From Gemmatimonadota bacterium (lineage in GTDB: Bacteria > Latescibacterota > UBA2968), in the NCBI GenBank assembly GCA_026705765.1, contig JAPPAB010000099.1:14833-78832 (forward strand): a stretch of DNA of 64,000 nt, read 5' to 3'. Below are positions 50,579 through 64,000 of the stretch, one piece after another; the first letter of the stretch is position 1; each line of letters opens with the position of its first letter. Under the pieces are notes generated by a model. That model saw only the letters and a program-made list of their open reading frames with translations, was not told the DNA's origin and did not search any database. Both the position numbers and the translations under genes were made by a program.

Positions 50579-52216
50579 TTATGTGGCGGCATAGCTCAGC
50601 TGGTAGAGCAGTGGAATCATAATCCATGGGTCGGGGGTTCGAGTCCCTCTGCCGCTACCAAACGTATCGTCTCGCAGAACTTCTGACCTGTCCGGTTCAT
50701 GACAGGAACGAAATAAAGCGAGTTGAATCTCATCAGGGGTATAAATCAGTTGGTTGATGTGTAGCCTTAACAGGTCTTTCTGTTCCTCTGGTGTGGCTTC
50801 ATTATATAATTCTTCAAAGGTCATAAGTTTTTGCTTCATTTGAGCAACACTTATGGCCTTTTGTTTTGCCTCTGCCAGAGTTGCCTCGTTCTCCATCATC
50901 TCCTGTTCTATTTGGCTTTTTTGTTCTTCGAGGGCAATAATTTTCTGACTGATGGTTTTAAGGCCGACCTGCTGACCAGCGATGCTTTCCACCAGGACAT
51001 CCAGCTTCTTCTCAATATCTTTGAGGTTCCTGCGATGATTTTCCTGTGCTTGCCTTAAGGTTTTCATACGCTCCGATTGGCTTGTCGTAGCTTCTGCGAT
51101 AAGCTCTTGAACACGTTTTTGATCATCACTGAGTTGAATTAACCGATCAGCGACTACTTGTTCAAGGGCCGGTGCAGACACCGGCTTCATTTTGCATTCT
51201 TCGTTTCCACGATGGATTTTACAGGTGCAATGGTAGTAGAAATAGGGCTTTTTTTGGTGGTTTCGAGCCTGCGAAGGGGTCATGTGAGACTGGCACCAGC
51301 CACATTTAATCAGACCTTGAAGTAAGAAGGGGTGAAGGTTTTGTTTCCTCCCTCTTGTCCCAGAGACTCGGTTCGTTTCTATAACGGCTTGCACTTTATT
51401 CCACAATTCCATCGGGACAAGAGGATCATGCTGGCCTTCATATACCTTACCTTTGTGAGTAATTTTTCCAATATAAAATTCATTTTGGAGCATACGCATA
51501 ATCTGTGTCTTATTGAATTTTTTGCCAGAATAGACCTTATCCCTTCTCGACACATACGATTTTGTACGATAGCCTTTTTCATTTATGATTCGGGCTACGG
51601 CACGAAAACTTTGCTCTTTGACGTACGTCTGAAAAATTAAGATCACCAGTTCTCGTTCTGCTTCATTGGGCTTTAGAACGCCCTTGTTGTCCGGATCAAT
51701 GTCGTATCCAAGGAGGTGCTGTCCGCCATTACGTAGGCCCTTCTCAGCACGCCACTGCATTTTTTCTTTCGTGCGCTCACTGGTACGTTCTCTTTCTAAT
51801 TCAGCCGTTGCGAGAGAAATTGAGAGAGCAAACCGACCCATAGCGGTTGAGGTATCCCAATTCTCATTGATTGAAATGAATATGGTTTCGTTTTCTTCTA
51901 AAAATTCGTGGAATTGATAAAAGTCGATGATAGACCGGCTGACGCGATCAATTTTTGTGCATAACACCGCGTCAATCTTACCCTGCTCAATGTCTCGAAC
52001 CATTCGCTTGTATCCAGGGCGGTCTAAATTCTTACCCGATTTGCCTTCCTCACGATAGATTGCCACCGCTTTCCATTCTTCTTCTGGCGATGTGGAATCC
52101 TTGATTTCGACGTACTTCTGAAGCAGATCAATTTGGGTGTCCAAACTGCCATTTTTCACTTCGGCTTGCAGGTCGGTTGAGACCCGTGCATAAAGGCCAC
52201 ATTTTACCATATCCAT
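50579..52216 (-). CDS. Large serine recombinase (resolvase/invertase catalytic domain, recombinase domain, zinc ribbon)
   Basis: N-terminal YARVSTDLQ catalytic Ser motif, recombinase domain, Cys-rich zinc ribbon (CGWCQ...CTC), coiled coil. The last ~26 codons run antisense through the tRNA-Met gene with no in-frame stop. Confidence 0.8.
   Translation of the reverse strand: MDMVKCGLYARVSTDLQAEVKNGSLDTQIDLLQKYVEIKDSTSPEEEWKAVAIYREEGKSGKNLDRPGYKRMVRDIEQGKIDAVLCTKIDRVSRSIIDFYQFHEFLEENETIFISINENWDTSTAMGRFALSISLATAELERERTSERTKEKMQWRAEKGLRNGGQHLLGYDIDPDNKGVLKPNEAERELVILIFQTYVKEQSFRAVARIINEKGYRTKSYVSRRDKVYSGKKFNKTQIMRMLQNEFYIGKITHKGKVYEGQHDPLVPMELWNKVQAVIETNRVSGTRGRKQNLHPFLLQGLIKCGWCQSHMTPSQARNHQKKPYFYYHCTCKIHRGNEECKMKPVSAPALEQVVADRLIQLSDDQKRVQELIAEATTSQSERMKTLRQAQENHRRNLKDIEKKLDVLVESIAGQQVGLKTISQKIIALEEQKSQIEQEMMENEATLAEAKQKAISVAQMKQKLMTFEELYNEATPEEQKDLLRLHINQLIYTPDEIQLALFRSCHEPDRSEVLRDDTFGSGRGTRTPDPWIMIPLLYQLSYAAT
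50585..50660 (+). tRNA. tRNA-Met (anticodon CAT; elongator Met or tRNA-Ile2 type, probably not initiator)
   Basis: Manual fold: acceptor GGCGGCA, D-arm GCTC/GAGC, anticodon stem GTGGA/TCCAT with loop ATCATAA, T-arm GGGGG-TTCGAGT-CCCTC, CCA. G1-C72 pairing and absence of a 3xGC anticodon stem argue against initiator. Confidence 0.8.
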
Positions 52217-52314
52217 CCCCTTTGCTCTGTATTGTTTTATTTGGGAATTATATATAAATATATCTCCCGTCTATTTATTACAAATATACTTAAAAACAAT
52301 GCTTTATGCAACAT

Positions 52315-52524
52315 TTAATCACTGCCTTCACTTCCAGAAATACTGTTCAGAGTTGGTTTTTCCAACCTCCTCATATAAATGGTTTGACAGAGTTCTTTCA
52401 AGTGATCCATCCGTTCTTCGGGGGATAATTGGGCATAGGGGTTTTGGAGATTTGGAGCACCTTCTTCTATGACCGTAACAGGGATATTGTCCCAGTCGAT
52501 TTTTTGTCGTTTTGCCATAATCAC
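52315..52524 (-). CDS. Small hypothetical protein
   Basis: 69-aa ORF in an AT-rich region. Confidence 0.3.
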   Translation of the reverse strand: MIMAKRQKIDWDNIPVTVIEEGAPNLQNPYAQLSPEERMDHLKELCQTIYMRRLEKPTLNSISGSEGSD

Positions 52525-52594
52525 ACCTTTCTTTTTCTCAGGTGTGGTTTTTCCTACTCCCTGATATTGTTTTTAATGATTTGTTTTTGGAGTT

Positions 52595-52759
52595 TTATTT
52601 GTGCTGCACATCTTGTTTCAGAGCGTCTATTTTAATGGACTGCTCTTTCACAATATTGATTAACTCACCTTTCTGAATACGCAGTGTAATTGACCCCCAA
52701 AAAGAGGTGTCGAGTTCTTTCAGAAGTTGCGAAATTTCTTTGATTACCTGTGTTTTCAT
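52595..52759 (-). CDS. DUF2292 (YezD-like) small protein
   Basis: 54 aa MKTQVIKEISQLLKELDTSFWGSITLRIQKGELINIVKEQSIKID, with SD GGAG 7 nt upstream. The WGSITLxIQxGxLxxI core resembles YezD. Not in the ORF track (under 60 aa). Confidence 0.45.
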   Translation of the reverse strand: MKTQVIKEISQLLKELDTSFWGSITLRIQKGELINIVKEQSIKIDALKQDVQHK

Positions 52760-53633
52760 TTGTTGATCTCCTTCAGCGGCGTTGGCATTCAGCTTTGCCC
52801 ATTCGTCATCAAAGCCGCCTGATCTTGTCCAAATACGCCTTCACTTGGCCTCGAAAGATGCCGTGCTGGTGGCCCGGAAATAACTTGTCTGTCAACGCAT
52901 TTGCCGCCCGTTGAGATACACCCGCCTTTTTCTTATCGACTCCCAAAAGCCTTCTGATCTTGTCCTCATTGTAATCTGTCCAATTATCAAACCGATCCAG
53001 TGCCCAGCGATATGTTCAATTTTCACCATGCCCAAATAACCTCATTTGATAACAAGCCTGCCTGTCCAGTGCCCGACCACGCCGCCTGGTGGTCCTCTCT
53101 TTTTCCCTCTCAATCTCAATCACTTGGTTCAATGCCTGAGCAGATTTTGCCAAGCTCGCCGCATCAATTCGATAAGGCATTGTCGCCCATTGGATCACAA
53201 GTTTCTGTAAAGTCATTTTTGCCCTCACAGGTTGGGGGGTTTTTGGTTGCCGTTGTCCTTTGGTTTTTGCGCTATATTTTTCGACGCTCCGCGCCGGTCA
53301 GTTTGACTCTCGGTTTCCATAAGCTCGAGTACGCCGCCATCCCGAAATCTGTCTCCCTTCACCAACAGGTGCTATAGGTGTGCGAGGATCTTCATCATGT
53401 GCATCTTCCTCCTCGTACTCTGTACCTCCGCAGTGACTGCGGAGAGGGTTTTTGAAGTCAAGATTTTCCCAGGGACTCACACAGTGCGTTTTATATTGAC
53501 GCCTACAATCTTCTATTCAGTACTTCTTATATTATGTCCACCTCTAGAGCGGGTATCCTACCAGACGTAGAGGTGGTAAGTTTCAACCAGATGGTCGCAC
53601 GGAAGCCTACCACCTCTAGAGCGGGTATAGGTG

Positions 53634-54161
53634 TTAGAGGGGCGGAAAGGGTTTAAATTGTTTGTATTCCTGATGGCGGATCGCATCTGCTGCATAGATC
53701 GCTTCATTCCGCTCAAGCAACTTCGCTCGCTCTTCAGCCCTCAAGGCTTTGGCAGCGGCAAAGTCATCCATCCACTGGTGTCTGCGCAGGTAGTGTACAG
53801 ACGATACATTACCGGTACTAAAGAAGCCTTTTCCCTTTCCTTTTCGCCTTATGCGACCAATAAGCCCTAGGTCTAAGAGTTTTTTGGTTGCCTTCTCGAC
53901 GGTTGTCTTGCTCTTGGCACCTATGTCCTGAGCGATTGTTACATTGCTTACCCAGGTGAAAGCCCCATTTCCATATCCCATAGACATACTGCAATAGGTC
54001 TTGAGGACGCCATAGACACATTTTGCACTGTAGGGCACTTCATTGACGGGACGGCACATCAGCCACTTGGGTGTCATAAAAAACTCTTCATCGGACACAT
54101 TCAGGGCCTTGTCGTCCTTTTCTATCTCCTCCTGATAATACTTCATGACATCACTAAACAT
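53634..54161 (-). CDS. Hypothetical protein with probable winged-helix DNA-binding region
   Basis: Central helix-turn-wing segment (VTIAQDIGAKSKTTVEKATKKLLDLGLIGRIRRKG); basic region follows. Confidence 0.4.
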   Translation of the reverse strand: MFSDVMKYYQEEIEKDDKALNVSDEEFFMTPKWLMCRPVNEVPYSAKCVYGVLKTYCSMSMGYGNGAFTWVSNVTIAQDIGAKSKTTVEKATKKLLDLGLIGRIRRKGKGKGFFSTGNVSSVHYLRRHQWMDDFAAAKALRAEERAKLLERNEAIYAADAIRHQEYKQFKPFPPL

Positions 54162-54546
54162 CTCTCTTTCCCTCTTGTTGTACCCCCGACCGGGTACGGA
54201 GACAGATTAAAAAAACATTTTTATTTGCTAATTTCATTTTCGTTCGTATCTTAACATTGAATACTCAATGGGGGTTCTTTGGGTGTTCTTTGCAAGCTAT
54301 TCTCTGTGCCGTCGGCTCCCTACAAGCCTGACGGCACTTTTTTTACCTCTCGTCGGATGATAAAAAACATAGGTCGTTGCAACTCAAATTTCAACCCCAA
54401 AAATAATTTGTCGCAAATTTCCCACTTTTTCTGATAGAAAAACTTTTTTCTTGTCTGCTGTGGAAAGTTCTGCGTATATTTACGTATATACACAATAGGA
54501 ATTTTCTAAGTATCGGTCAAGTCAAACACGAGAGAGGAAGCCAAGT

Positions 54547-55590
54547 ATGGACAACGCATTGACCACCAGGCCGCACAGCGCGGTCGATAAAACGTCCCAG
54601 ACACTTCAACCGGGATCCATCGCCCACAACACAAAGCGGATGTATTGCCACGCTACCACGCACTTTTTGAATTGGTGCGAGAAGATCGACCAGGCCGCAC
54701 AAACCAGCGGCGACCTCGACGGGGTACTTATGCAAGCCGCCGTGCGCTTTCACGGCAAACATGTCACGCCCGAAGAAATCAATCAATATCTGACACATCT
54801 GCACCTCAATGGCAAAAGCCCTGCATCCATCGCTAGCGTCCTGACAGCGATCAAATTCATGGCCCGACACACAGGCACGTCCATTGACTTTTTGCCAGCA
54901 GACACAACGCTGAAGGGCATCAAGCGCAATGCCGAGGCGCAAGCGCGAGGTCGCGGCCAAGCCACTGGTATCAAAGTCGATGACGCTATAACGATGGCGA
55001 CCATCGCAGACAGTCCCGCGCATACCTCACCGACCGACAGCAAAGAGACACCAGAGAAGGCATGGATCCGCCGAGCGCGTGATGCCGCTATCATTCTCAC
55101 AATGAGCAATGGACTTTTGAGGATTTCAGAGGTTGGCGCGATCCTATGCGAGCATATCAGTACTCGAGAAAACGGATCGGGCAGTCTTCTAATCCCGCGC
55201 TTAAAGACTGACCAAGAAGCCGAAGGGCGAGAAGTCTATCTGCAAAAGCGGACAATCAAAGCAATCGAAAAATACCAGCGGCTCTCTGGCGTGAGTGACG
55301 GCCCACTGTTCAGGCGCATCTATCAAAACAGCAAAATGGGCAAAGACGCGCTCGGTATCACTGCGATACGGGATATGATCAAAGACGTGGCCGAAAAAGC
55401 GCAAATAGATGTTACCGGAATTTCAGGCCACAGCTTCAGGGTGGGAACAGCGCAAACACTCGTGGAGAAAAAAGCGACAATGCTACAACTCCAGACGGCT
55501 GGCAGGTGGAAAGATACGCGAATGCCAGCCAGATATACCGAGAAAGAGGAATTGGCAAAAGGTGTGATTGCCACAATCCTAGGGGAATAG
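54547..55590 (+). CDS. Tyrosine-type site-specific recombinase/integrase
   Basis: GHSFRVGTAQ (HxxR) and C-terminal RMPARYTE catalytic Tyr region; N-terminal core-binding domain. Confidence 0.8.
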   Translation: MDNALTTRPHSAVDKTSQTLQPGSIAHNTKRMYCHATTHFLNWCEKIDQAAQTSGDLDGVLMQAAVRFHGKHVTPEEINQYLTHLHLNGKSPASIASVLTAIKFMARHTGTSIDFLPADTTLKGIKRNAEAQARGRGQATGIKVDDAITMATIADSPAHTSPTDSKETPEKAWIRRARDAAIILTMSNGLLRISEVGAILCEHISTRENGSGSLLIPRLKTDQEAEGREVYLQKRTIKAIEKYQRLSGVSDGPLFRRIYQNSKMGKDALGITAIRDMIKDVAEKAQIDVTGISGHSFRVGTAQTLVEKKATMLQLQTAGRWKDTRMPARYTEKEELAKGVIATILGE

Positions 55591-55662
55591 AAAAGGGACC
55601 AAACAATTTGAATTGTTCAAACGTATCAACCTCAAAATTCAGAGTGAGCGCACAAAAAAGTC

Positions 55663-55699
55663 TGGCGAGCCATTCGATTAAAATGGCTCGCCAGACTCA
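55663..55699. repeat. Perfect 15-bp inverted repeat (stem-loop)
   Basis: GTCTGGCGAGCCATT-cgattaa-AATGGCTCGCCAGAC, preceded by an A-run. Confidence 0.7.
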
Positions 55700-55973
55700 G
55701 CACGACACAATTTTGTATTGACTTCATGCTGGCAAATGTACAGTGTTTACAAGAGCAAGTTTTGGCTTCAACTGTTCAGCATTCGCAATAACACTTTCGA
55801 CTCCAGAACTGATATTGCATGTCTCTTTGATGTTGCTGTTCTATACGCTAGAATTTCCAGAATAGATCGTGCTGGTCTAATTCATTGTCCAGCAATTCAT
55901 TTTGTAATCGCACAGGCTCAGGCAACCGACACAGCGATTCGATAAGCAGAAACAAACTTTTAGCTCAATGAGT

Positions 55974-56633
55974 TTATATTTCAAATCCTCCTCTTTTATC
56001 AATGCGAGAAATAACACCTTTAAATTCAAAAATTATTTTAATCTTCTCCAATATCATTAACATAAATATCATTCGTAAAGATTCTTTAGGAAACACCGCC
56101 TCAATTTCTTCTATCAATTTTCGTTTACCATCGTCTCTGTGGTATTCGTACGCATTTAACCATGCCATCAAAACTTCCTCACTGTTGACCATCAATTCTC
56201 CATAAGTAATTCTCAACGATTTCCGAAAATGTTTATTAGAAAACACATCTTTGACAGATCGGAAGTATTGAGTCATCAATGGGTGTCTCATATTACAACT
56301 AAGCAAATCTACCATCTTATTAAAATAAAAAGGCTCTGGATACCTCCTACTCCCCTGAAGTATAAATGGTCTCAACCTATGTAAGATTCCTGAACGACGT
56401 AAAATATCAATATTTGATTTCTCCACCAATTCAACACTATCATCATCAAAATCTATCTTCACGCTCCCACTAACTTTCAAACCTCCACATCTCTGAATCA
56501 AATTAAAAAATTCATCTACTTCATTACAGAACCCTAATAGCGTTTCCCATGCCTCACCAGGAATATTTCCTCTAATTGTTTTTCCAGAGGACTCACCTTT
56601 TATGGTAATACTGTACGATTTATCCATTATCAA
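55974..56633 (-). CDS. Hypothetical protein, very AT-rich cargo gene
   Basis: 219 aa with no recognisable domain; about 30-35% GC versus about 58% for the host. Confidence 0.45.
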   Translation of the reverse strand: MIMDKSYSITIKGESSGKTIRGNIPGEAWETLLGFCNEVDEFFNLIQRCGGLKVSGSVKIDFDDDSVELVEKSNIDILRRSGILHRLRPFILQGSRRYPEPFYFNKMVDLLSCNMRHPLMTQYFRSVKDVFSNKHFRKSLRITYGELMVNSEEVLMAWLNAYEYHRDDGKRKLIEEIEAVFPKESLRMIFMLMILEKIKIIFEFKGVISRIDKRGGFEI

Positions 56634-56828
56634 TACCCAATTTCTCTTTCGCTTCTTCTGACTTAACAGGCGTCACTACCACCTTTGCCAATTCCTCAGC
56701 CGTATAAGGAAATTGAGGCCACCCTACCTCCTCATTTCCCTGCTCTTTACACTACTAATCACCTATACTATAAACCAAAATCAATCACCCCAAAATCACC
56801 GGCACTATTGAATATAAGTCCCATTTGT

Positions 56829-57323
56829 TTAGCTATCGCCTCCGGTATATTTCTTCGCTCGTTTACCTGTCTGTTTTATGTCAATAAAGAACGATGTTGC
56901 AAGGAATCCAGTGATAAAAGAGAATAGCCAGAGAATGAAATAAAACACATTGCCATTGTCTCGATAACGCTTCAAATCTTCCGTTTCTTTGTCAAATTCC
57001 GCTTTCTTTCTTTCGATTTCCTCTTGCTCTTTCTTTCTCGCCTCTATTTTTAGTTTGGGCACGTCATATTTTCGCATAAATGTATATGCGACCTCTTTTT
57101 CCTCAGTACCCCTCTTAAACCATCGGTATTCACCAGCCAGAATTTGATATGGCTCTCTGCCGCTATGTGGTTCTCTAATAATCGCCTTTGCCATAATGCG
57201 AAGATTGAGATTAGGCGAGTCTATGTATTCCCTCATATCCTCTCGGATAGACTCATTGATTTGTTCTCGTGTCATCACATCCACTTTCTGAAGGAAATTA
57301 CTGGAAAGCCCATTACTCAGCAA
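56829..57323 (-). CDS. Hypothetical coiled-coil protein with C-terminal transmembrane segment, AT-rich cargo gene
   Basis: KEQEEIERKKAEFDKETEDLKRY coiled coil and FYFILWLFSFITGFLATSFFI transmembrane helix; the start may be the internal Met (MTREQ). Confidence 0.4.
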   Translation of the reverse strand: MLSNGLSSNFLQKVDVMTREQINESIREDMREYIDSPNLNLRIMAKAIIREPHSGREPYQILAGEYRWFKRGTEEKEVAYTFMRKYDVPKLKIEARKKEQEEIERKKAEFDKETEDLKRYRDNGNVFYFILWLFSFITGFLATSFFIDIKQTGKRAKKYTGGDS

Positions 57324-57426
57324 ACACTTGATTATATATAGTTGAAGTTATGGTTGGTTGTCAATAAAGTCTTTGATAGCGAGGCTGGCAAAGTCAGATC
57401 GTATTGTTGAGACAGATACCCGATAA

Positions 57427-57639
57427 AGCGGAGCGCAAGGCCCGCTCTTTCGGCGGATGTGGAGTAATGGCCGCCTGGGGGATAATGCTATCATAGTCAA
57501 CGCTGTGCGCGATATAATCAAATCCTGCGCCCGCGACGCCGGGGTTGACGGCTATATCTTCGGGCACTCGCTCCGGGTTGGATCCGCTCAAGGCCTAGCC
57601 GAAAAAGGCGCAATAGCCCGCCTCAAATATGGTCACTAA
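57427..57639 (+). pseudogene. Truncated tyrosine-integrase remnant (internal HxxR region only)
   Basis: DNAIIVNAVRDIIKSCARDAGVDGYIFGHSLRVGSAQGLAEKGA aligns with KDALGITAIRDMIKDVAEKAQIDVTGISGHSFRVGTAQTLVEKKA of the intact integrase at 54547. The N-terminal domains and catalytic Tyr are missing. Confidence 0.65.
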
Positions 57640-57692
57640 ATGCCCCCTTTTCGGTAACACCTAAACTTTCAGGCTCACGATCTGGAGAAAAC

Positions 57693-57983
57693 ATGTCAAA
57701 ATCTAAACGTCCGGTCGGGCGGCCAAAGACAACCGACCTTGTAACGTTCTCCATAAAGATACCTCGCAAGCTACAAGCCCAACTCGACAAGGCCGCTGGT
57801 AACTCGCTCGATAGCCGAAATATGATCATCAGGCGAGTACTCGAGCAATACTTCAATGGCGAATTGTCCAGGGCTGATTTGACGCCGCTTGATTATGGAC
57901 ACAGTATCAACTTTGATGCACCGGCGGTACGGCGAGAAGTGCCGCACCAGCACCCACAGGAGAAATTGTCTTACAGCGAATAG
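57693..57983 (+). CDS. Ribbon-helix-helix (CopG/Arc-like) DNA-binding protein with N-terminal AT-hook-like RPVGRPK
   Basis: TFSIKIPRKLQAQLDKAAG...SRNMIIRRVLEQYF fits the RHH beta-strand plus two helices. Confidence 0.5.
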   Translation: MSKSKRPVGRPKTTDLVTFSIKIPRKLQAQLDKAAGNSLDSRNMIIRRVLEQYFNGELSRADLTPLDYGHSINFDAPAVRREVPHQHPQEKLSYSE

Positions 57984-58186
57984 ACCCGCCCGCGCCCGCG
58001 CTCGAATACAAAAAAACAGCCCGTTGGTCTTAACCGATCGACGGGCTATTTGTTTGTGCGAATCTTCAGCTTTTCAGGCACAAACATAATGGAGAGCAGG
58101 AAAAAAGCCCCAGTGAGTGCCGACACACTCACCAGGGCAAAACAATGCACACCTTGACAGGTGCATCACCACGAAAGGAGATCTCG

Positions 58187-58639
58187 ATGGAGAACGCAAC
58201 AGAAAAACCGACCGACAAACAACGCGCTTTGCTCAACAAGCTGATGTTGTCAAGCACGTTCACCGCGGAAGAAGCACACCGTACTGCCATTTGGATGAAT
58301 AGCCCGCGAGCTACGAGGGACAAAGCCACCGAGATAATCGACAATGCAATGGCGAGAATCAAAAAGCGTGACGGCGACAAAAAAGCCAGTGCCGACCGCA
58401 AGGCCGAGTATCACGCCAATAAAGCCAATGGCGAAGGCGAATATCCCCCCAAACGGTACAGCCAGGACCATCCCCCGCCCAACGGGAAATCGACCGCAGA
58501 CACCCCACCAGAAACAACGCCAGATCCCCCACCAGTTCGCAAAGCCGAAAATGAGGGCAAAATCTACGTCATTAACGGCATCGAATACACCAATCCCAAT
58601 GAGGCTGCCGCCGCTGCATCCAAAGCCATCTTCGGGTAA
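58187..58639 (+). CDS. Hypothetical protein (Pro/Thr-rich linker)
   Basis: ORF starting MENATEKPTDKQRALL, with a charged N-terminal region and a low-complexity middle. Confidence 0.4.
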   Translation: MENATEKPTDKQRALLNKLMLSSTFTAEEAHRTAIWMNSPRATRDKATEIIDNAMARIKKRDGDKKASADRKAEYHANKANGEGEYPPKRYSQDHPPPNGKSTADTPPETTPDPPPVRKAENEGKIYVINGIEYTNPNEAAAAASKAIFG

Positions 58640-58663
58640 CACAACCAATAGGAGACCCCCTCG

Positions 58664-59362
58664 ATGTATAAGATCAATGGCGTGTACGAAATTGAGCAAC
58701 CCGTTTATAAAATCCAGAAGACTGGAGCCGAGAGTTTGCCAGATGATGAGCTTCTTGCCCTCGTTCTCCGAATGCCCCAACGCAATGGTAGCGACGTGCT
58801 GGCGAAGTGCCGCGCTTTTCTCAAAAAGAACCCCATCGACAAACTCGCAGACTTTCAGCTTGAACATCCGCCCGGGCAAATCATCGACCGCAGACTCGAA
58901 GGGAATGATCTGACCAAATCCCAACAAATCACCCTGCAAGCCGTACTCGAGTTTTCCCGTCGTGTGCTTAATCAGGGCATGGGGATAGATAAGCCGGTCA
59001 CGTCGCCCGCGGAAGTCTTGCCAGAGCTTCGCCACATCCGCGACCTCAAGCAAGAGCATTTTGTCACGATCTTTCTGAATGCCAGGAACCAGGTCATAAA
59101 GACCGAGACAATCAGCATCGGATCCCTCAACGCGAGTCTTGTGCATCCGAGAGAAGTGTTTGCGCCAGCCGTTGGGATAAGCGCGGCCAGTGTGATACTC
59201 GGACACAACCACCCCTCTGGCGATGTAACGCCCTCTCGTGAGGACATCGAGCTTACGCGCCGGATGGTTCAGGCTGGCGAGATAATGGGGATCGAGGTGG
59301 TCGATCACCTCATCATCGGATCCGAGCGGTTCATCAGCATGAAGGAAGCGAATGTTTTCTAA
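58664..59362 (+). CDS. radC: RadC-like JAB/JAMM domain protein
   Basis: LGHNHPSGDVTPSREDIELT JAMM motif (HxHxxxxxxxxxxS..D) in the C-terminal half. Confidence 0.8.
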   Translation: MYKINGVYEIEQPVYKIQKTGAESLPDDELLALVLRMPQRNGSDVLAKCRAFLKKNPIDKLADFQLEHPPGQIIDRRLEGNDLTKSQQITLQAVLEFSRRVLNQGMGIDKPVTSPAEVLPELRHIRDLKQEHFVTIFLNARNQVIKTETISIGSLNASLVHPREVFAPAVGISAASVILGHNHPSGDVTPSREDIELTRRMVQAGEIMGIEVVDHLIIGSERFISMKEANVF

Positions 59363-59422
59363 TCCACCTGGGCGGCCCGCGCGGTCGCCCAATCACCCCC
59401 AACAGAAAGGACGTGCAAAACA

Positions 59423-59608
59423 ATGTGGGTAGAAAGCCGCCAGCGGCTGATTGCTCTTGAGAGCAGAGACATCAAGCTGGAATGCCGCGAGATCGTCTTC
59501 GACAATGGCCGCAACATCGAGGTCGTGCGCTATCCATCACCACAAGCCGCCGCCGTCCGGTATAACGCCATAGTCCAACGCCTCACAGAAAGCGGCCTGA
59601 TCATCTAA
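59423..59608 (+). CDS. Small hypothetical protein, paralogue of 60394..60600
   Basis: MWVESRQRLIALESRDIKLECREIVFDNGRNIEVVRYPS versus MWLQNGRRLLALEGRDISLTGRDIVFEGNTRNTEVVRYPS. Confidence 0.5.
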   Translation: MWVESRQRLIALESRDIKLECREIVFDNGRNIEVVRYPSPQAAAVRYNAIVQRLTESGLII

Positions 59609-59642
59609 CTCCCCAACGCAAGCGTAGAAAGGAACCCCACCA

Positions 59643-59879
59643 ATGCCAGAATATGAGGCCGCGCCGCCAGAGATCGCCGAGGCGATTGAGATAGCTACGC
59701 CCGTAGAAACCACCACCAACCACACACCGGAAAAGTTCGTTGTCCGTCTGAAGTTCTTCGGATTGGTCACGCTCAAGCCCGAGGATTTTGTGAAACGGCT
59801 TGAGGAATTGTGTCAGGAGTTCACCGAGTCCAAAGAGGAATACAGCTTCAGTTGGGATACAGACTTTGCCGCGGAATAA
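59643..59879 (+). CDS. Small hypothetical protein, paralogue of 60214..60390
   Basis: FVVRLKFFGLVTLKPEDFVKRLEELCQEFT versus LTVKLKLSGQVARRQAFVKHLDRLCQTFT. Confidence 0.45.
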   Translation: MPEYEAAPPEIAEAIEIATPVETTTNHTPEKFVVRLKFFGLVTLKPEDFVKRLEELCQEFTESKEEYSFSWDTDFAAE

Positions 59880-59933
59880 CCCCAATCATCTGGGCGACTT
59901 CGAGAGTTGCCCACATCCAACAGGAGAACCACA

Positions 59934-60203
59934 ATGTCACAGCCAGAGATCACGTTTAGGCATGGGCTATGCTCGGCCTCGATCTACGAGAATGAATACA
60001 CACGCGGAGAGGAAAAATTCACTGTCCGCACTGTCACGTTTCAGCGCAGTTACCTGGACAAAGACGGCAACTGGCAGACCACCAACAGCTTGAAGGTGAA
60101 CGATATACCGAAGGCCATCCTCGTTTTGCAAAAATCGTACGAATTTCTCACATCGAACAGCATGGCCGATGTGGGCGCCGATGCTGAATTTGATGGCGAA
60201 TAG
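59934..60203 (+). CDS. Small hypothetical protein
   Basis: MSQPEITFRHGLCSASIYENEYTRGEEKFTVRTVTFQRSYLDKDGNWQTT, about 90 aa. Confidence 0.4.
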   Translation: MSQPEITFRHGLCSASIYENEYTRGEEKFTVRTVTFQRSYLDKDGNWQTTNSLKVNDIPKAILVLQKSYEFLTSNSMADVGADAEFDGE

Positions 60204-60213
60204 GGAGACATCA

Positions 60214-60390
60214 ATGGCAAAAGAAAAGGTAACACCTGCCGCGCCTGACGGCCTCACAGTGAAGCTGAAACTCTCGGGACAGGTCGCCAGGCGCCAGGCG
60301 TTTGTCAAGCACCTCGATAGGCTCTGCCAGACGTTCACAAATGGCCGTGTGGTCTGCTCAATGACTCACGCGCCCAACGAAAGGAACTAA
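60214..60390 (+). CDS. Small hypothetical protein (paralogue of 59643..59879)
   Basis: Begins MAKEKVTPAAPDGLTVKLKLSGQ within the ORF listed from 60169. Confidence 0.4.
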   Translation: MAKEKVTPAAPDGLTVKLKLSGQVARRQAFVKHLDRLCQTFTNGRVVCSMTHAPNERN

Positions 60391-60393
60391 ACA

Positions 60394-60600
60394 ATGTGGC
60401 TTCAGAATGGCCGCCGGTTACTGGCACTTGAGGGGCGCGACATCTCCCTGACAGGACGGGATATTGTCTTTGAAGGTAATACCCGCAACACGGAGGTCGT
60501 GCGATACCCTTCATCCAAAGCCGCCAGTGAGCAATTCAGCACGATCATAAAGGCTATTGGAGAGGATCGAATCATCATTCAGGACTTCGAGGACGAGTAA
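60394..60600 (+). CDS. Small hypothetical protein (paralogue of 59423..59608)
   Basis: Paralogous similarity (aligned under 59423..59608). Confidence 0.5.
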   Translation: MWLQNGRRLLALEGRDISLTGRDIVFEGNTRNTEVVRYPSSKAASEQFSTIIKAIGEDRIIIQDFEDE

Positions 60601-60657
60601 CCACCAGGGCGGCCCCAGTGGTCGCCCATAACCCCCAACCATTGAAAGGAATATCCA

Positions 60658-61404
60658 ATGGAAGCAATCAGCGCAGAAACCGCTCTACTGCCAGAGGTCG
60701 ATGTTGAGGCTATCGTTGGCGAGTGCTATGTACCGTTCCCCCAGGACGTGATAAAGATTCGCCAGGATGCAGGAACCGGCAACAAGCCGCTCTCGTATGT
60801 CGGGCATCCCGAATATACCCGCCGTCTGGATCGAATGTTTCCCTTCGCCTGGGACTTCCGTACCGAAGTGGTCGGCCTTACCGATACCACTGTGGGCGTG
60901 AAAGGGTCGCTGAGCATAACGCTCGAAGATGGTCGAGTAATCACCAGAGAGAACTACGGGCACGGCAACATAAATCGTGGGTTTCCCCTGGGCGATGCAA
61001 TGAAAACCGCCTGTGTCGATGCGCTCAAAAAGTGCTGTTCGATGTTCGGTATTGGTCTGCATCTCTACGACGGAGACGACGACAACGCCAGCCGCGCCAG
61101 CAACGGACGGCATCACAACGGGCACAACGACGACCCGCTTTCTGACCCCGGCCATGACTGGATAGACGACCCTAACCCGCCACCGCGCGAGCAGGGGCCA
61201 GAACGTTATGAGGTAGGGCCTGGAGAAGCGGCCACCTCAAAGCAGATCGTCGCCTTGCAGAACATCGCCAAGTCCTCAAAGACGGATGGCGACCTTGCCG
61301 ACGAGATTAACCGCAAGTTGAAGACTCCCCCCAAAGATGGCGAGGTGCGTATCACCAAAAAGGAAGCATCAGACCTCATAAGCCGCGCATTTGGGGAGAA
61401 ATAG
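60658..61404 (+). CDS. Rad52/Sak-type single-strand annealing protein
   Basis: GHPEYTRRLDRMF, VGVKGSLSITLEDG and ALKKCCSMFGIGLHLY (GIGxxLY-type) motifs typical of Rad52-family phage SSAPs; acidic/Asn-rich C-terminal tail. Confidence 0.65.
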   Translation: MEAISAETALLPEVDVEAIVGECYVPFPQDVIKIRQDAGTGNKPLSYVGHPEYTRRLDRMFPFAWDFRTEVVGLTDTTVGVKGSLSITLEDGRVITRENYGHGNINRGFPLGDAMKTACVDALKKCCSMFGIGLHLYDGDDDNASRASNGRHHNGHNDDPLSDPGHDWIDDPNPPPREQGPERYEVGPGEAATSKQIVALQNIAKSSKTDGDLADEINRKLKTPPKDGEVRITKKEASDLISRAFGEK

Positions 61405-61554
61405 AGGATTGGATGCGTCTGGGAGCGATTATTTGAAAAGTGCCTGGGGGAGACACTTGTTAATCGCTCTCAGAACGCTTAACATGAAGTGTTTCGTAGC
61501 TTTTGCGTACATCTCGACCTTCAGGCGCGGAGCAAGGCCCACTGTGGAGGGGAT

Positions 61555-62007
61555 ATGAAAAAACACTGGGGAGTTATTGCAATTTTTGTGCTGGTGATTG
61601 CATTGGGAATGATAGGCGAGTCCAAAAGGTTCCTGGGCGACAATGCGCCTGTTGAAGTTTCGCAGGTGACGACGGGCGAGAAGATGCTGGAAAAATTACT
61701 CGTGGATGCGTACGAGAAACACGCCGCCCTGCCTGTCTTTAAGACGCTTTACGAAGGTTCGGATGCAAAGGTGAAATTTCATTCGTATCGGAACAGAATT
61801 GTTGAAAGACTCAGAGAACCCAACAGGCTGGTTCACGGGGATCCGCCCTTCAATCAGGGCGCGAAATATGCCTATTGGTTCATCGAGATTAACGGACGTA
61901 AGCACACTGTCAGTTTGTCTTTGCGTGGCGTGAGCGCCCATTATCGAAAGCAAGGCATCACCCCCATCATCGACTTCTCTTTGAGGCAAGGTCACGATAC
62001 CTTTTAA
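61555..62007 (+). CDS. Hypothetical membrane-anchored protein
   Basis: N-terminal transmembrane helix WGVIAIFVLVIALGMI; no recognisable domain. Confidence 0.4.
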   Translation: MKKHWGVIAIFVLVIALGMIGESKRFLGDNAPVEVSQVTTGEKMLEKLLVDAYEKHAALPVFKTLYEGSDAKVKFHSYRNRIVERLREPNRLVHGDPPFNQGAKYAYWFIEINGRKHTVSLSLRGVSAHYRKQGITPIIDFSLRQGHDTF

Positions 62008-62078
62008 TTTGGTGTTACTCCGAACACGACCCCAACGATCGGGGAGAATATGTCAACAATCAAAAGAAGGAATACCGC

Positions 62079-63980
62079 ATGCGTATAGGTGCAGTAGTAA
62101 CAATGCTATTGGTAGGGATCGTCACCCAGTCGTGCAGGATTGAGATGCCGTCGCTGGTCGAGTTAATGATACGGGACTTCAAGCCGGGAACGGGAGTTCG
62201 GTTTCCGTCAATCTATGACCTCGGCAAAAGCAGGGCCGTTGCTCTACAAAGTGGCTTCAAGGACACACTGATCATTGCCGATGATCCAACTACAGGTCAC
62301 GGCAAAGCGATGAAAGACATATTCATAAACACTGGCGTATCCGATAGAAATATCTTGTTTGTAGAGCGCTTCGGCTACGTGGATCTGATTGGGAATGTAG
62401 GTCTGAGAGAGCTCATTTCAAATGAACAGGAGAATCTGCGGAATGCAACAAGGGTGGTGCATATACCACGACGTACGCCGCTTGATACGTCTGAAGACCC
62501 GGCCAGATTAAGAAGCACTGATAACATCCTGTTTATCTTATCCGCTGGCAATACATATTCTGTAGATTCAACATACATCACCGATCAAAGAGAAGCTGAT
62601 CGTGACCTCTACAACAAAAATCATCAGCACTGGAGGGACGGAAATTACGAATTCTTGTTGGAAGTGCGAAACACCAACAAAGTCCTCTGGGCTACCAGCG
62701 CTCACATAACCAGAACGCATGATATTGAACCGAACAGGAATGTCGTCTCATGTGGAGACATCAAAGAGAATTGCTTCACAATAATACCAGGACAATACAC
62801 CTCTGACGCCTCTGCCCGTCTCTCCGCTATGGCATTCTACCTCTCACAACTTTATCCGACTGAGGAAGAAGTACGGGAGACACTGGAAGTCTGCGCGGTC
62901 GATATAGGCGAACCCGGCATTGACCGAGAATACGGAAGGGGACTCGCCAACCTCTTATGCCCTCGCATCCTGGAAAAAGAGCTAAGTATCGTTTCACAGT
63001 ACCTGCAAAAAGAAGGGGAGACGTTCACGCCAAAAGGAGGGGTACTGACAGGCACTTGGGAGGCGAAGGGTAGCGCACTAAAGGTGTATATGCCGCTCGC
63101 ACTCGAAGAAACGCTTCAGCCGCAATACAGCGGCACTGTGAACGGCAAGATCACCTTCAAAGCCGACAGCGATAGCGTCACGGCTAACTTCCGAGCAGAG
63201 GCAGACATAGAGGCGACGTTTCTGATGTCGATAACGGCAACGGCAAAGGATACCCTGAAGGGTGCAGGTACTTACAGCACCTCCCCGGCAACAGTGCTTA
63301 CCCTCAAGACAGGGGAGAACACCTCTCGATCATATACCTACACGGCAACAGAAGACTCACTCCATCTTGTTCACTCACTTACGCTGAACGAAATGCTGGC
63401 ACTTTTGTCTGGACCGATAGGAGACCTTGCAGATACAGTCACCAAAGACCTGTTTGCCAGCAATCCCATTCAGATCAAAATGAGTTTTGCAAAGAGGCCA
63501 GAGCCAAAGGCGCCGAGTATGCCCCAGAATGTGCGACAGGCAGGTGTGACCGCAACGACAATCACTCTGCAATGGGATCCGCCAGCGGATGATGTGCCCG
63601 TATTCGCATACCACATCGTCCGCTATACGGACAACTCCTGCACAGACATTGCTGAGTCCAAAGGCAGCGCAGAGCAGCGCGTCCTTTTCACTGACCTTGT
63701 TGCAGACACGGAGTATTACTTCAGCGTCCAGGGAGCCAACCTTAGCGGCTGGAGTCCACAGAGTAGCTGTATAACAGTGAGAACGCAAAAGACGCTTCTC
63801 CCTGCTGATTTCAACAGTGATGGTATTGTCAATATCCCTGATTTCCTGCTCTTTGTTGATGTGTTTGGCACACGAGAAGGGGATCAAAACTTCGATGCCC
63901 GTATGGATCTCGACGGCAACGGCATTGTCGGCATAGAAGACTTTCTCATCTTCACCGCCGCCTTTGGTCAGACTGCATAA
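62079..63980 (+). CDS. Secreted/lipoprotein-like protein with a C-terminal fibronectin-III domain, two dockerin-like calcium-binding repeats, and an N-terminal region with weak subtilase-like motifs
   Basis: FN3 (TATTITLQWDPP...YYFSVQGANLSGWSP). Dockerin-like DFNSDGIVNIPDFLLF and DLDGNGIVGIEDFLIF. N-terminal SAGN and GHG segments are only vaguely S8-like. Confidence 0.5.
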   Translation: MRIGAVVTMLLVGIVTQSCRIEMPSLVELMIRDFKPGTGVRFPSIYDLGKSRAVALQSGFKDTLIIADDPTTGHGKAMKDIFINTGVSDRNILFVERFGYVDLIGNVGLRELISNEQENLRNATRVVHIPRRTPLDTSEDPARLRSTDNILFILSAGNTYSVDSTYITDQREADRDLYNKNHQHWRDGNYEFLLEVRNTNKVLWATSAHITRTHDIEPNRNVVSCGDIKENCFTIIPGQYTSDASARLSAMAFYLSQLYPTEEEVRETLEVCAVDIGEPGIDREYGRGLANLLCPRILEKELSIVSQYLQKEGETFTPKGGVLTGTWEAKGSALKVYMPLALEETLQPQYSGTVNGKITFKADSDSVTANFRAEADIEATFLMSITATAKDTLKGAGTYSTSPATVLTLKTGENTSRSYTYTATEDSLHLVHSLTLNEMLALLSGPIGDLADTVTKDLFASNPIQIKMSFAKRPEPKAPSMPQNVRQAGVTATTITLQWDPPADDVPVFAYHIVRYTDNSCTDIAESKGSAEQRVLFTDLVADTEYYFSVQGANLSGWSPQSSCITVRTQKTLLPADFNSDGIVNIPDFLLFVDVFGTREGDQNFDARMDLDGNGIVGIEDFLIFTAAFGQTA

Positions 63981-64000
63981 ACCCGTACTCGAGAACACAA

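Follow-up and report, generated by a model that had tools for sequence, protein, structure and literature searches.

The window analysed here, a 64,000-nucleotide stretch of a 286-kb metagenomic contig (JAPPAB010000099.1), contains a gene for a large serine recombinase (LSR) that reads antisense through a complete tRNA gene and appears to mark the left end of an integrative element. The tRNA-Met(CAT) gene is intact (50585‒50660, + strand; ARAGORN, with 67 bits for the Rfam tRNA family), and the host genes FloA and NfeD adjoin it on the left. The LSR open reading frame (ORF) of 545 aa lies on the opposite strand (50579‒52216, − strand). Its last 26 codons (residues 520‒545, GSGRGTRTPDPWIMIPLLYQLSYAAT) are supplied by the antisense strand of the entire tRNA-Met, and its TAA stop codon at 50579‒50581 is located four bases past the 5' end of the tRNA. 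An earlier note on this DNA had pointed to this open frame and to a fall in GC content at the tRNA, and both are borne out. The GC content is 0.559 to the left of the junction (40000‒50584) and 0.481 to the right (50661‒64000), and the GC skew shifts from +0.24 to −0.06, with the change occurring at tRNA-Met. A second independent sample contains this junction as well, together with an LSR that is 100% identical. The Logan contig L006 breaks off at 50633, which hints at an assembly branch but is not interpretable.

The LSR matches the Resolvase family of resolvase-type catalytic domains (PF00239, E = 1.5e-34), the Recombinase family (PF07508, E = 2e-16), and the zinc ribbon family Zn_ribbon_recom (PF13408, E = 1.5e-13). 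Homologues of the LSR are 34‒86% identical to it. We fetched 80 genome loci encoding homologues (34‒80% identity) and aligned 48 homologues, across which R11 and S13 are invariant. The catalytic domain matches that of the TP901-1 integrase (E = 9e-22), and the match to the A118 integrase's C-terminal region spans residues 168‒385. The PHROG integrase family phrog_95 (E = 1e-117) covers only residues 2‒498, and the family profiles end at residue 498. Residues ~370‒470, considered for the coiled-coil motif that large serine recombinases carry inserted in the zinc-ribbon domain, are rich in E, K, and Q. Judged from its sequence, the enzyme is a large serine recombinase in which the serine catalytic domain is followed by the Recombinase and zinc-ribbon domains, and its chemistry is not that of a tyrosine recombinase.

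Antisense read-through of the whole tRNA-Met is by itself not significant, because one of the three antisense frames of the tRNA is open and the LSR frame remains open in 44% of shuffles. The non-random part is that the LSR ORF abuts or enters an antisense tRNA in 52 of the 80 homologous genome loci. On the + strand, a promoter-like site of tRNA-Met (TTGACA-17-TATTTT, 50537‒50565) agrees with the consensus at 10 of 12 positions, and no terminator-like site was found downstream of it before ~51166. Transcription from this site would run antisense into the LSR gene, and a regulatory effect of such read-through is possible.

Left junction, deduced attachment site, and association of the recombinase clade with tRNA genes

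Two relatives possess the FloA-NfeD-tRNA-Met arrangement and lack the LSR, namely L169 (NfeD 91% identical) and L168 (86%). Comparison with related genomes lacking the insert had been proposed in the earlier note, and these two loci provide it. The similarity of the window to both ends at 50658‒50662, within two bases of the 3' end of tRNA-Met, in agreement with the insertion at tRNA-Met claimed there. The junction reads ...CTGCCGCTAC|CAAACGTATCG... in the window, ...CTGCCGCTAC|TAAATAAAT... in L169, and ...CTGCCGCTAC|CCAAAAAAT... in L168, or in short form ...GCCGCTAC|CAAACG, ...GCCGCTAC|TAAAT, and ...GCCGCTAC|CCAAAAAA, respectively. This divergence places the crossover at or left of tRNA nucleotide 74, with the encoded CCA supplied by the element. 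From the unoccupied alleles, the dyad centre given by the motif offsets described below, and the element DNA to the right, the crossover region of the left attachment site (attL) is deduced to be tRNA nucleotides 71‒74 (C-T-A-C, 50655‒50658). This puts the junction within the recombinase gene's 3' end, as had been supposed. The G1·U72 pair of tRNA-Met was considered as a possible element-derived feature and rejected, since both unoccupied alleles have this pair.

Rearrangements were observed at this tRNA in the relatives. In L168, a 4.7-Mb relative, a 130-bp segment with tRNA-Met and its promoter (L168:9683‒9812, window 50534‒50662) is inverted relative to NfeD, and the genes flanking the inverted segment (Band_7, Uma2, SerRS) differ from those of the window. 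The closest strain, L167, whose host flanks are 94% identical, has a different LSR (~78‒85% nucleotide identity) at the same tRNA-Met (L167:7103‒9781). This LSR is split by an IS630-type insertion, the remaining element is deleted, and rearrangement at the locus is too extensive for it to show where the element ends on the right.

Among the 80 genome loci, the 52 ARAGORN-verified tRNAs overlapped antisense by the LSR ORF are 41 tRNA-Asn(GTT), 5 Gln, 3 Glu, 2 Met, and 1 Arg. The hosts belong to Latescibacterota, Omnitrophota, Planctomycetota, Desulfobacterota, Hydrogenedentota, KSB1, Nitrospirota, and other phyla, and the nearest LSR-bearing genomes are Candidatus Latescibacterota chromosomes. 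The metagenome-assembled genome (MAG) of the window is labelled Gemmatimonadetes at NCBI, and its nearest genomes are likewise Latescibacterota. The overlap measures between 13 and ~109 nt, and at some loci the ORF already ends within the T-loop. At tRNA-Asn, the ORF is usually closed by a stop codon that is the reverse complement of the anticodon loop, for an overlap of 42 nt. The homologues end in peptides that represent tRNA T-arms read antisense, with all three frames in use (...GIRTP..., ...DSNLRP..., ...GFEPV...), and LSR homologues that are 75‒86% identical terminate in different tRNAs. The tail is therefore set by whichever tRNA is entered, without conservation at the protein level.

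Two further observations concern the targets. In four loci, mostly of Omnitrophota (L020, L024, L025, L029), the LSR abuts only the 3' half of a tRNA-Asn that is broken in the anticodon loop (...GGTTAC|...). Here the LSR could have integrated into a piece of tRNA that another island had displaced, or the element site (attP) could contain a longer stretch of tRNA. One Latescibacterota chromosome (OX638329.1; L009, L070) contains two sister elements, one at tRNA-Gln(CTG) and one at tRNA-Gln(TTG).

A form without a tRNA was found in a relative. The P0057 LSR (51% identical) occurs on 16 contigs from many samples, always with the same neighbours: SNF2 helicase, Pam3 gp34-like, primase-helicase, Mom, and ParB-methylase genes on one side, and a type III Res/Mod pair, HNH, and holin genes on the other. 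This constant neighbourhood of phage genes puts the P0057 LSR in a phage genome without a tRNA. Its tail is ...DSMNWLP|KFPVLLTAVR, whereas the near-identical integrated P0063/P0066 end in ...DSMNWLP|GRDSNPRPGG, the antisense translation of tRNA-Asn. The DNA common to the phage and integrated forms is TGGCTCCCC, the reverse complement of the last nine bases of the tRNA, followed by divergence. The same pattern was seen between L081 and L078 and between L074 and L086, and across the relatives the two forms share only TGGCTCCC(C/G). Since the forms share this short segment and then diverge, attP is located within the last LSR codons, and integration swaps the C-terminal tail. The idea in the earlier note that integration rebuilt the C-terminus therefore holds for these relatives (P0057 versus P0063/P0066), and the same exchange would apply to the window element.

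Short motifs at fixed distances point to the half-sites. On the tRNA arm, GAAC of the T-loop is found at +20 from TGG in 45 of 45 integrated sites; on the element arm, AAC is found at +26/27 in eight of nine tRNA-less sites, and on the LSR-gene side, GTT at −19 to −21 in 28 of 45. The dyad centre of the clade, TGGCT|CCCC, corresponds to tRNA positions 71/72, and the outer motif is located 5‒6 bp further out on the element arms. In the window, GTTC of the T-loop (50637‒50640) and GAAC (50677‒50680) are 15‒16 nt and 20‒21 nt, respectively, from a centre at 50655‒50657, and the offsets put the dyad centre at TGGT|A or TGGTA|G. This spacing fits the comparison with the empty sites. In attL, tRNA-Met itself (50585‒50660, + strand), containing the T-loop GTTC, is the bacterial arm (B), and the element arm (P', 50659‒50680) is located inside the last LSR codons and includes the GAAC, which reads GTTCNGCGAGA on the LSR strand. 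Sister elements at tRNA-Met, Asn, Gln, and Glu share the conserved pattern GTTC(A/T)GCGAGA-N9-TGG, with the motif 4‒6 bp further from the centre than the T-loop GTTC. Such an outward motif shift on attP is the known attP/attB half-site geometry of serine integrases, reportedly from the work of Rutherford et al. in 2013.

We consider the DNA rightward from 50658 likely to be an integrative element of a Candidatus Latescibacterota genome, which its own LSR inserted at the very 3' end of tRNA-Met and whose attP is inside the LSR gene. A short core around tRNA nucleotides 71‒74, whose exact dinucleotide we infer, would be the place of crossover. The bacterial half-site recognized by the LSR would be the T-arm and acceptor strand of the tRNA, and the element half-site would be a GTTC-type motif within the LSR gene, located ~5 bp further out. 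Once integrated, the element would provide the last 2‒4 nucleotides of the tRNA, including CCA, and the tRNA would therefore remain intact. In the integrated state, the LSR frame would be cut off from the element's other end and run antisense into the tRNA to the first in-frame stop, here just beyond the 5' end of the tRNA. The 26-residue tail would then be a by-product of this geometry, and excision would exchange it if, as we infer, the window copy has remained mobile.

Gene content and right end of the element

All the genes named in the earlier note, namely the serine recombinase, a tyrosine integrase, and genes for RHH, RadC, and Rad52-type proteins, are present. Beside the LSR, two small ORFs of 67 and 54 aa (52315‒52759, − strand) have tblastx matches in L007, L008, and L009 and the same gene order in L170, L171, and L172. 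They match no family and are candidate regulators or a candidate directionality factor. A variable slot follows at ~52.8‒57.6 kb (52800‒57650), with a GC content down to 0.36. It contains a 175-aa replication-initiator-like fragment (53634‒54161, − strand), the tyrosine integrase (54547‒55590, + strand; a complete Phage_integrase ORF), and ORFs of no known family. The kilobase of lowest GC content (0.36) is found beside the tyrosine integrase, where ORFs without a family match (55974‒56633) may be a separate nested insertion.

The conserved backbone operon (57693‒62007, + strand) encodes RHH (57693‒57983), a 150-aa ORF, RadC (58664‒59362), five small ORFs, a Rad52/Erf-type annealing protein (60658‒61404), and another 150-aa ORF, and it is common to L007/L170, L171, L172, and L174. 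Sister elements are located at tRNA-Asn (L007/L170 and L171/L173) and tRNA-Gln (L172/L070). The shared backbone comprises the LSR, two small ORFs, RHH, a 150-aa ORF, RadC, small ORFs, the Rad52/Erf-type gene, a 197-aa ORF, and DUF1232. The MAG of the window has a second copy of the 197-aa backbone gene, 78% identical, on another contig (P0241, P0254). The tyrosine integrase, which the earlier note had counted among the element genes, is present but is located outside the conserved backbone, in a block that reaches from ~52.8 kb to ~57.6 or ~58.1 kb and is absent from L007/L170, L171, and L172. The first slot of the sister elements is filled by AbiC/PIN-PhdYeFM (defence, toxin-antitoxin), a 465-aa HTH_36 protein, or DnaB. 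In L171, the backbone also holds a group II intron reverse transcriptase (7268‒9049) and an IS605-type TnpB (OrfB; 10613‒11728).

To the right of the operon, a 633-aa protein with fn3 and dockerin-like domains (62079‒63980, + strand) is cargo. It has no match in the sister elements (L007/L170), and the backbone resumes beyond the window. PHROG 'tail' matches to this protein are confined to its fn3 domain (residues 466‒571). No virion (capsid, terminase, portal, tail), packaging, lysis, or conjugation genes were found with Pfam and PHROGs at 50.6‒71.8 kb, the only 'tail' and 'virion' matches being to fn3 and Laminin_G. The description 'phage-like' is therefore weak. A cryptic integrative element, which may be replicative or satellite-like, is a more fitting name than prophage.

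The backbone terminates in a ~320-nt structured noncoding region at window-equivalent 66,320. This region (L001:13917‒14240, window-equivalent 65,995‒66,318) has a TTGACA box at its start and a terminator at its end. It is conserved above the level of the neighbouring ORFs in four elements, and RNAalifold predicts 102 pairs, six with compensatory changes. It contains a tRNA-minihelix-like piece, matches no Rfam family, and could represent either a structured RNA or an origin region. Repeats of 70‒150 nt, dispersed and in part palindromic, are found around cargo genes in both orientations (window-equivalent 69108‒69185 and 71095‒71252) and in the Latescibacterota loci L167, L169, L170, L172, L174, and L008; they resemble a MITE/REP-like family or the boundaries of cassettes.

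The window holds attL only, as had been noted. Relative to L169, strain-specific DNA extends to ~71.3 kb, where synteny resumes at a gene for a Bor-like protein (56% aa identity) and at one for a sigma-54 activator (83% nucleotide identity), and the conserved backbone ends at window-equivalent 66.3 kb. The right attachment site (attR) lies outside the window, ~2.3‒7.3 kb past its end, at a position that was not located. The earlier note had anticipated attR as a ~25-nt repeat of the tRNA 3' end, but neither a 25-mer of this end (≤3 mismatches) nor shorter tRNA-end patterns recur in the window or in the 10 kb that follow it. Such a repeat should not exist for a serine integrase, and it is not expected here because the phage-form site and the tRNA share only ~9 nt in the relatives. 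The best direct matches to the tRNA end were at chance level, as were inverted copies of the element arm (GTTCNGCGAGA) and matches to spacing-constrained patterns, including a weak candidate at window-equivalent 66995‒67021.

Three other candidates for attR were rejected. The palindrome TTTGG-TA-CCAAA (window-equivalent 66264‒66267 with the element arm) belongs to the structured noncoding region; this stretch and its terminator are conserved in the sisters at tRNA-Asn and tRNA-Gln, where the central dinucleotide is mismatched. The backbone end at 66320 (...GTGTGTAC) shares no dinucleotide that fits the tRNA-Asn elements. The 11-mer CTCTGCCGCTA at 57155 is expected 0.3 times by chance and is located inside an ORF. 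Among the tRNA-Asn loci, no small element (<10 kb) with both ends visible was found, and a scan of viral contigs with a single protein gave no match.

Alternative explanations

Several observations weigh against an element inserted by its own LSR and still mobile. No convincing element-arm or host-flank junction was found at window-equivalent 66.3‒71.3 kb, and any length or current mobility of the element is therefore conjectural. This copy may be decaying, as its replication-initiator gene seems cut short (175 aa versus 465 aa in L171) and IS remnants are found to the right. The tRNA-less phage form is known from a 51%-identical relative outside the subclade of the window element. In addition, the tRNA-proximal terminator of L169 resembles terminators within the sister elements, and L169 is possibly not a pristine empty site. 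An alternative is a grounded remnant, in which the LSR entered at the tRNA end, the right site and replication were subsequently lost, and the overlap is a frozen relic of an immobile island. The unidentifiable attR, the truncated initiator with foreign blocks inserted nearby, the IS-like fragments and dispersed repeats on the right side, and the related LSR of the close strain L167 split by IS630 all favour this explanation. On the other hand, the LSR ORF of the window is intact with all catalytic and domain signatures and is 100% identical in two independent samples, and the failed attR search is weak evidence because serine-integrase sites are too short and asymmetric to be recognized without an excised or empty reference. 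We regard a grounded remnant as unlikely, though it deserves some weight.

A classical tRNA island, in which the tyrosine integrase (54547‒55590) integrated at tRNA-Met and the LSR is a passenger, would be in line with the known tRNA targeting of tyrosine integrases (PMC4383910) and with the complete Phage_integrase ORF in the element. However, this ORF is 3.9 kb from the junction, and its block is missing in sister elements that still abut tRNAs via their LSR. The displaced tRNA-fragment repeat of such an island is absent within 23 kb, and LSR homologues overlap a tRNA in 52 of 80 loci whatever the neighbouring genes. Such an origin is thus very improbable. We give even less credence to the tRNA-encoded tail being a selected functional part, such as a fixed C-terminal extension on which activity depends. 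P0001‒P0004 have identical tails, but this identity follows from the conserved tRNA. Homologues that are 75‒86% identical bear unrelated tails from other tRNAs, the overlap varies from 13 to ~109 nt in three frames with some stops in the T-loop, and the family profiles end at residue 498, before the tail begins. Insertion of the element by its own LSR at the tRNA 3' end remains the explanation that we favour.

Relation to known integration systems

The window LSR resembles the integrases of phiC31, Bxb1, TP901-1, and A118 and SprA of SPbeta in its three-domain architecture, catalytic residues, and ~5-bp outward motif shift on the element arms, and its sites are probably short as well. Unlike these enzymes, whose targets are protein-coding or intergenic, the window LSR and its clade target tRNA 3' ends, with the element site inside the integrase ORF. 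A reading frame that crosses the attachment site, so that integration alters the 3' end of the gene, is shared with IntP/IntX of the myxophage Mx8 and the integrase of the fusellovirus SSV1, and Mx8 also integrates at a tRNA gene. The Mx8 and SSV1 enzymes are tyrosine recombinases with a long core identity, whereas the window system is of the serine type, probably has ~9 nt or less identity, and would exchange the last 10‒30 codons. A phiRSM-type serine recombinase integrates at the 3' end of tRNA-Ser and is like the window LSR in this choice of target. Unlike the window LSR, the phiRSM-type enzymes are small and resolvase-like, lack the Recombinase and zinc-ribbon domains, and come from another lineage.

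The phiRSM-type group corresponds to the S-Core integrases of Mageeney et al. 2020 (TIGER; PMC7192596). In this computational study, t(m)RNA genes were the sites of 14 of the 297 serine-integrase islands, a use that 'has not been reported previously' and for which 'experimental proof will be required' (PMC7192596). The TIGER S-Int islands are like the window element in having Recombinase-domain serine integrases at tRNA genes, but the report describes no clade, crossover position, or ORF-tRNA overlap (PMC7192596). Hudson et al. 2015 (Islander) noted that the Mx8 and SSV integrases extend across attP and that tRNA targeting was known for tyrosine-family integrases only (PMC4383910). Unlike an Islander-type island, it is the LSR and not a tyrosine integrase that adjoins the tRNA here, and no displaced tRNA 3' repeat was found in the window or the 10 kb beyond it. 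No description of a tRNA-dedicated LSR clade or of an LSR ORF overlapping a tRNA was found in the full-text literature searched, which covered only a small part of the subscription journals, and the broad tRNA-targeting LSR clade is apparently undescribed. Such a clade would be of practical interest, since serine integrases are preferred in genome engineering and the 3' ends of tRNA genes offer landing pads that are both conserved and ubiquitous.

The geometry could also form a built-in switch, in which integration replaces the LSR C-terminus, removes the terminator, and exposes the gene's 3' end to convergent antisense transcription that starts at a strong tRNA promoter. We hold this to be speculative and rather doubtful. 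If it were true, the free and integrated forms would make different amounts and versions of the LSR, and the control of directionality or expression would be encoded in the attachment site across a widespread tRNA-targeting clade. tRNA genes have hitherto been treated as targets of tyrosine integrases, and this locus opens onto a coherent LSR clade with a readable site architecture. It bears on why tRNA genes attract integrases, in that the symmetric T-arm appears to act as the bacterial half-site.

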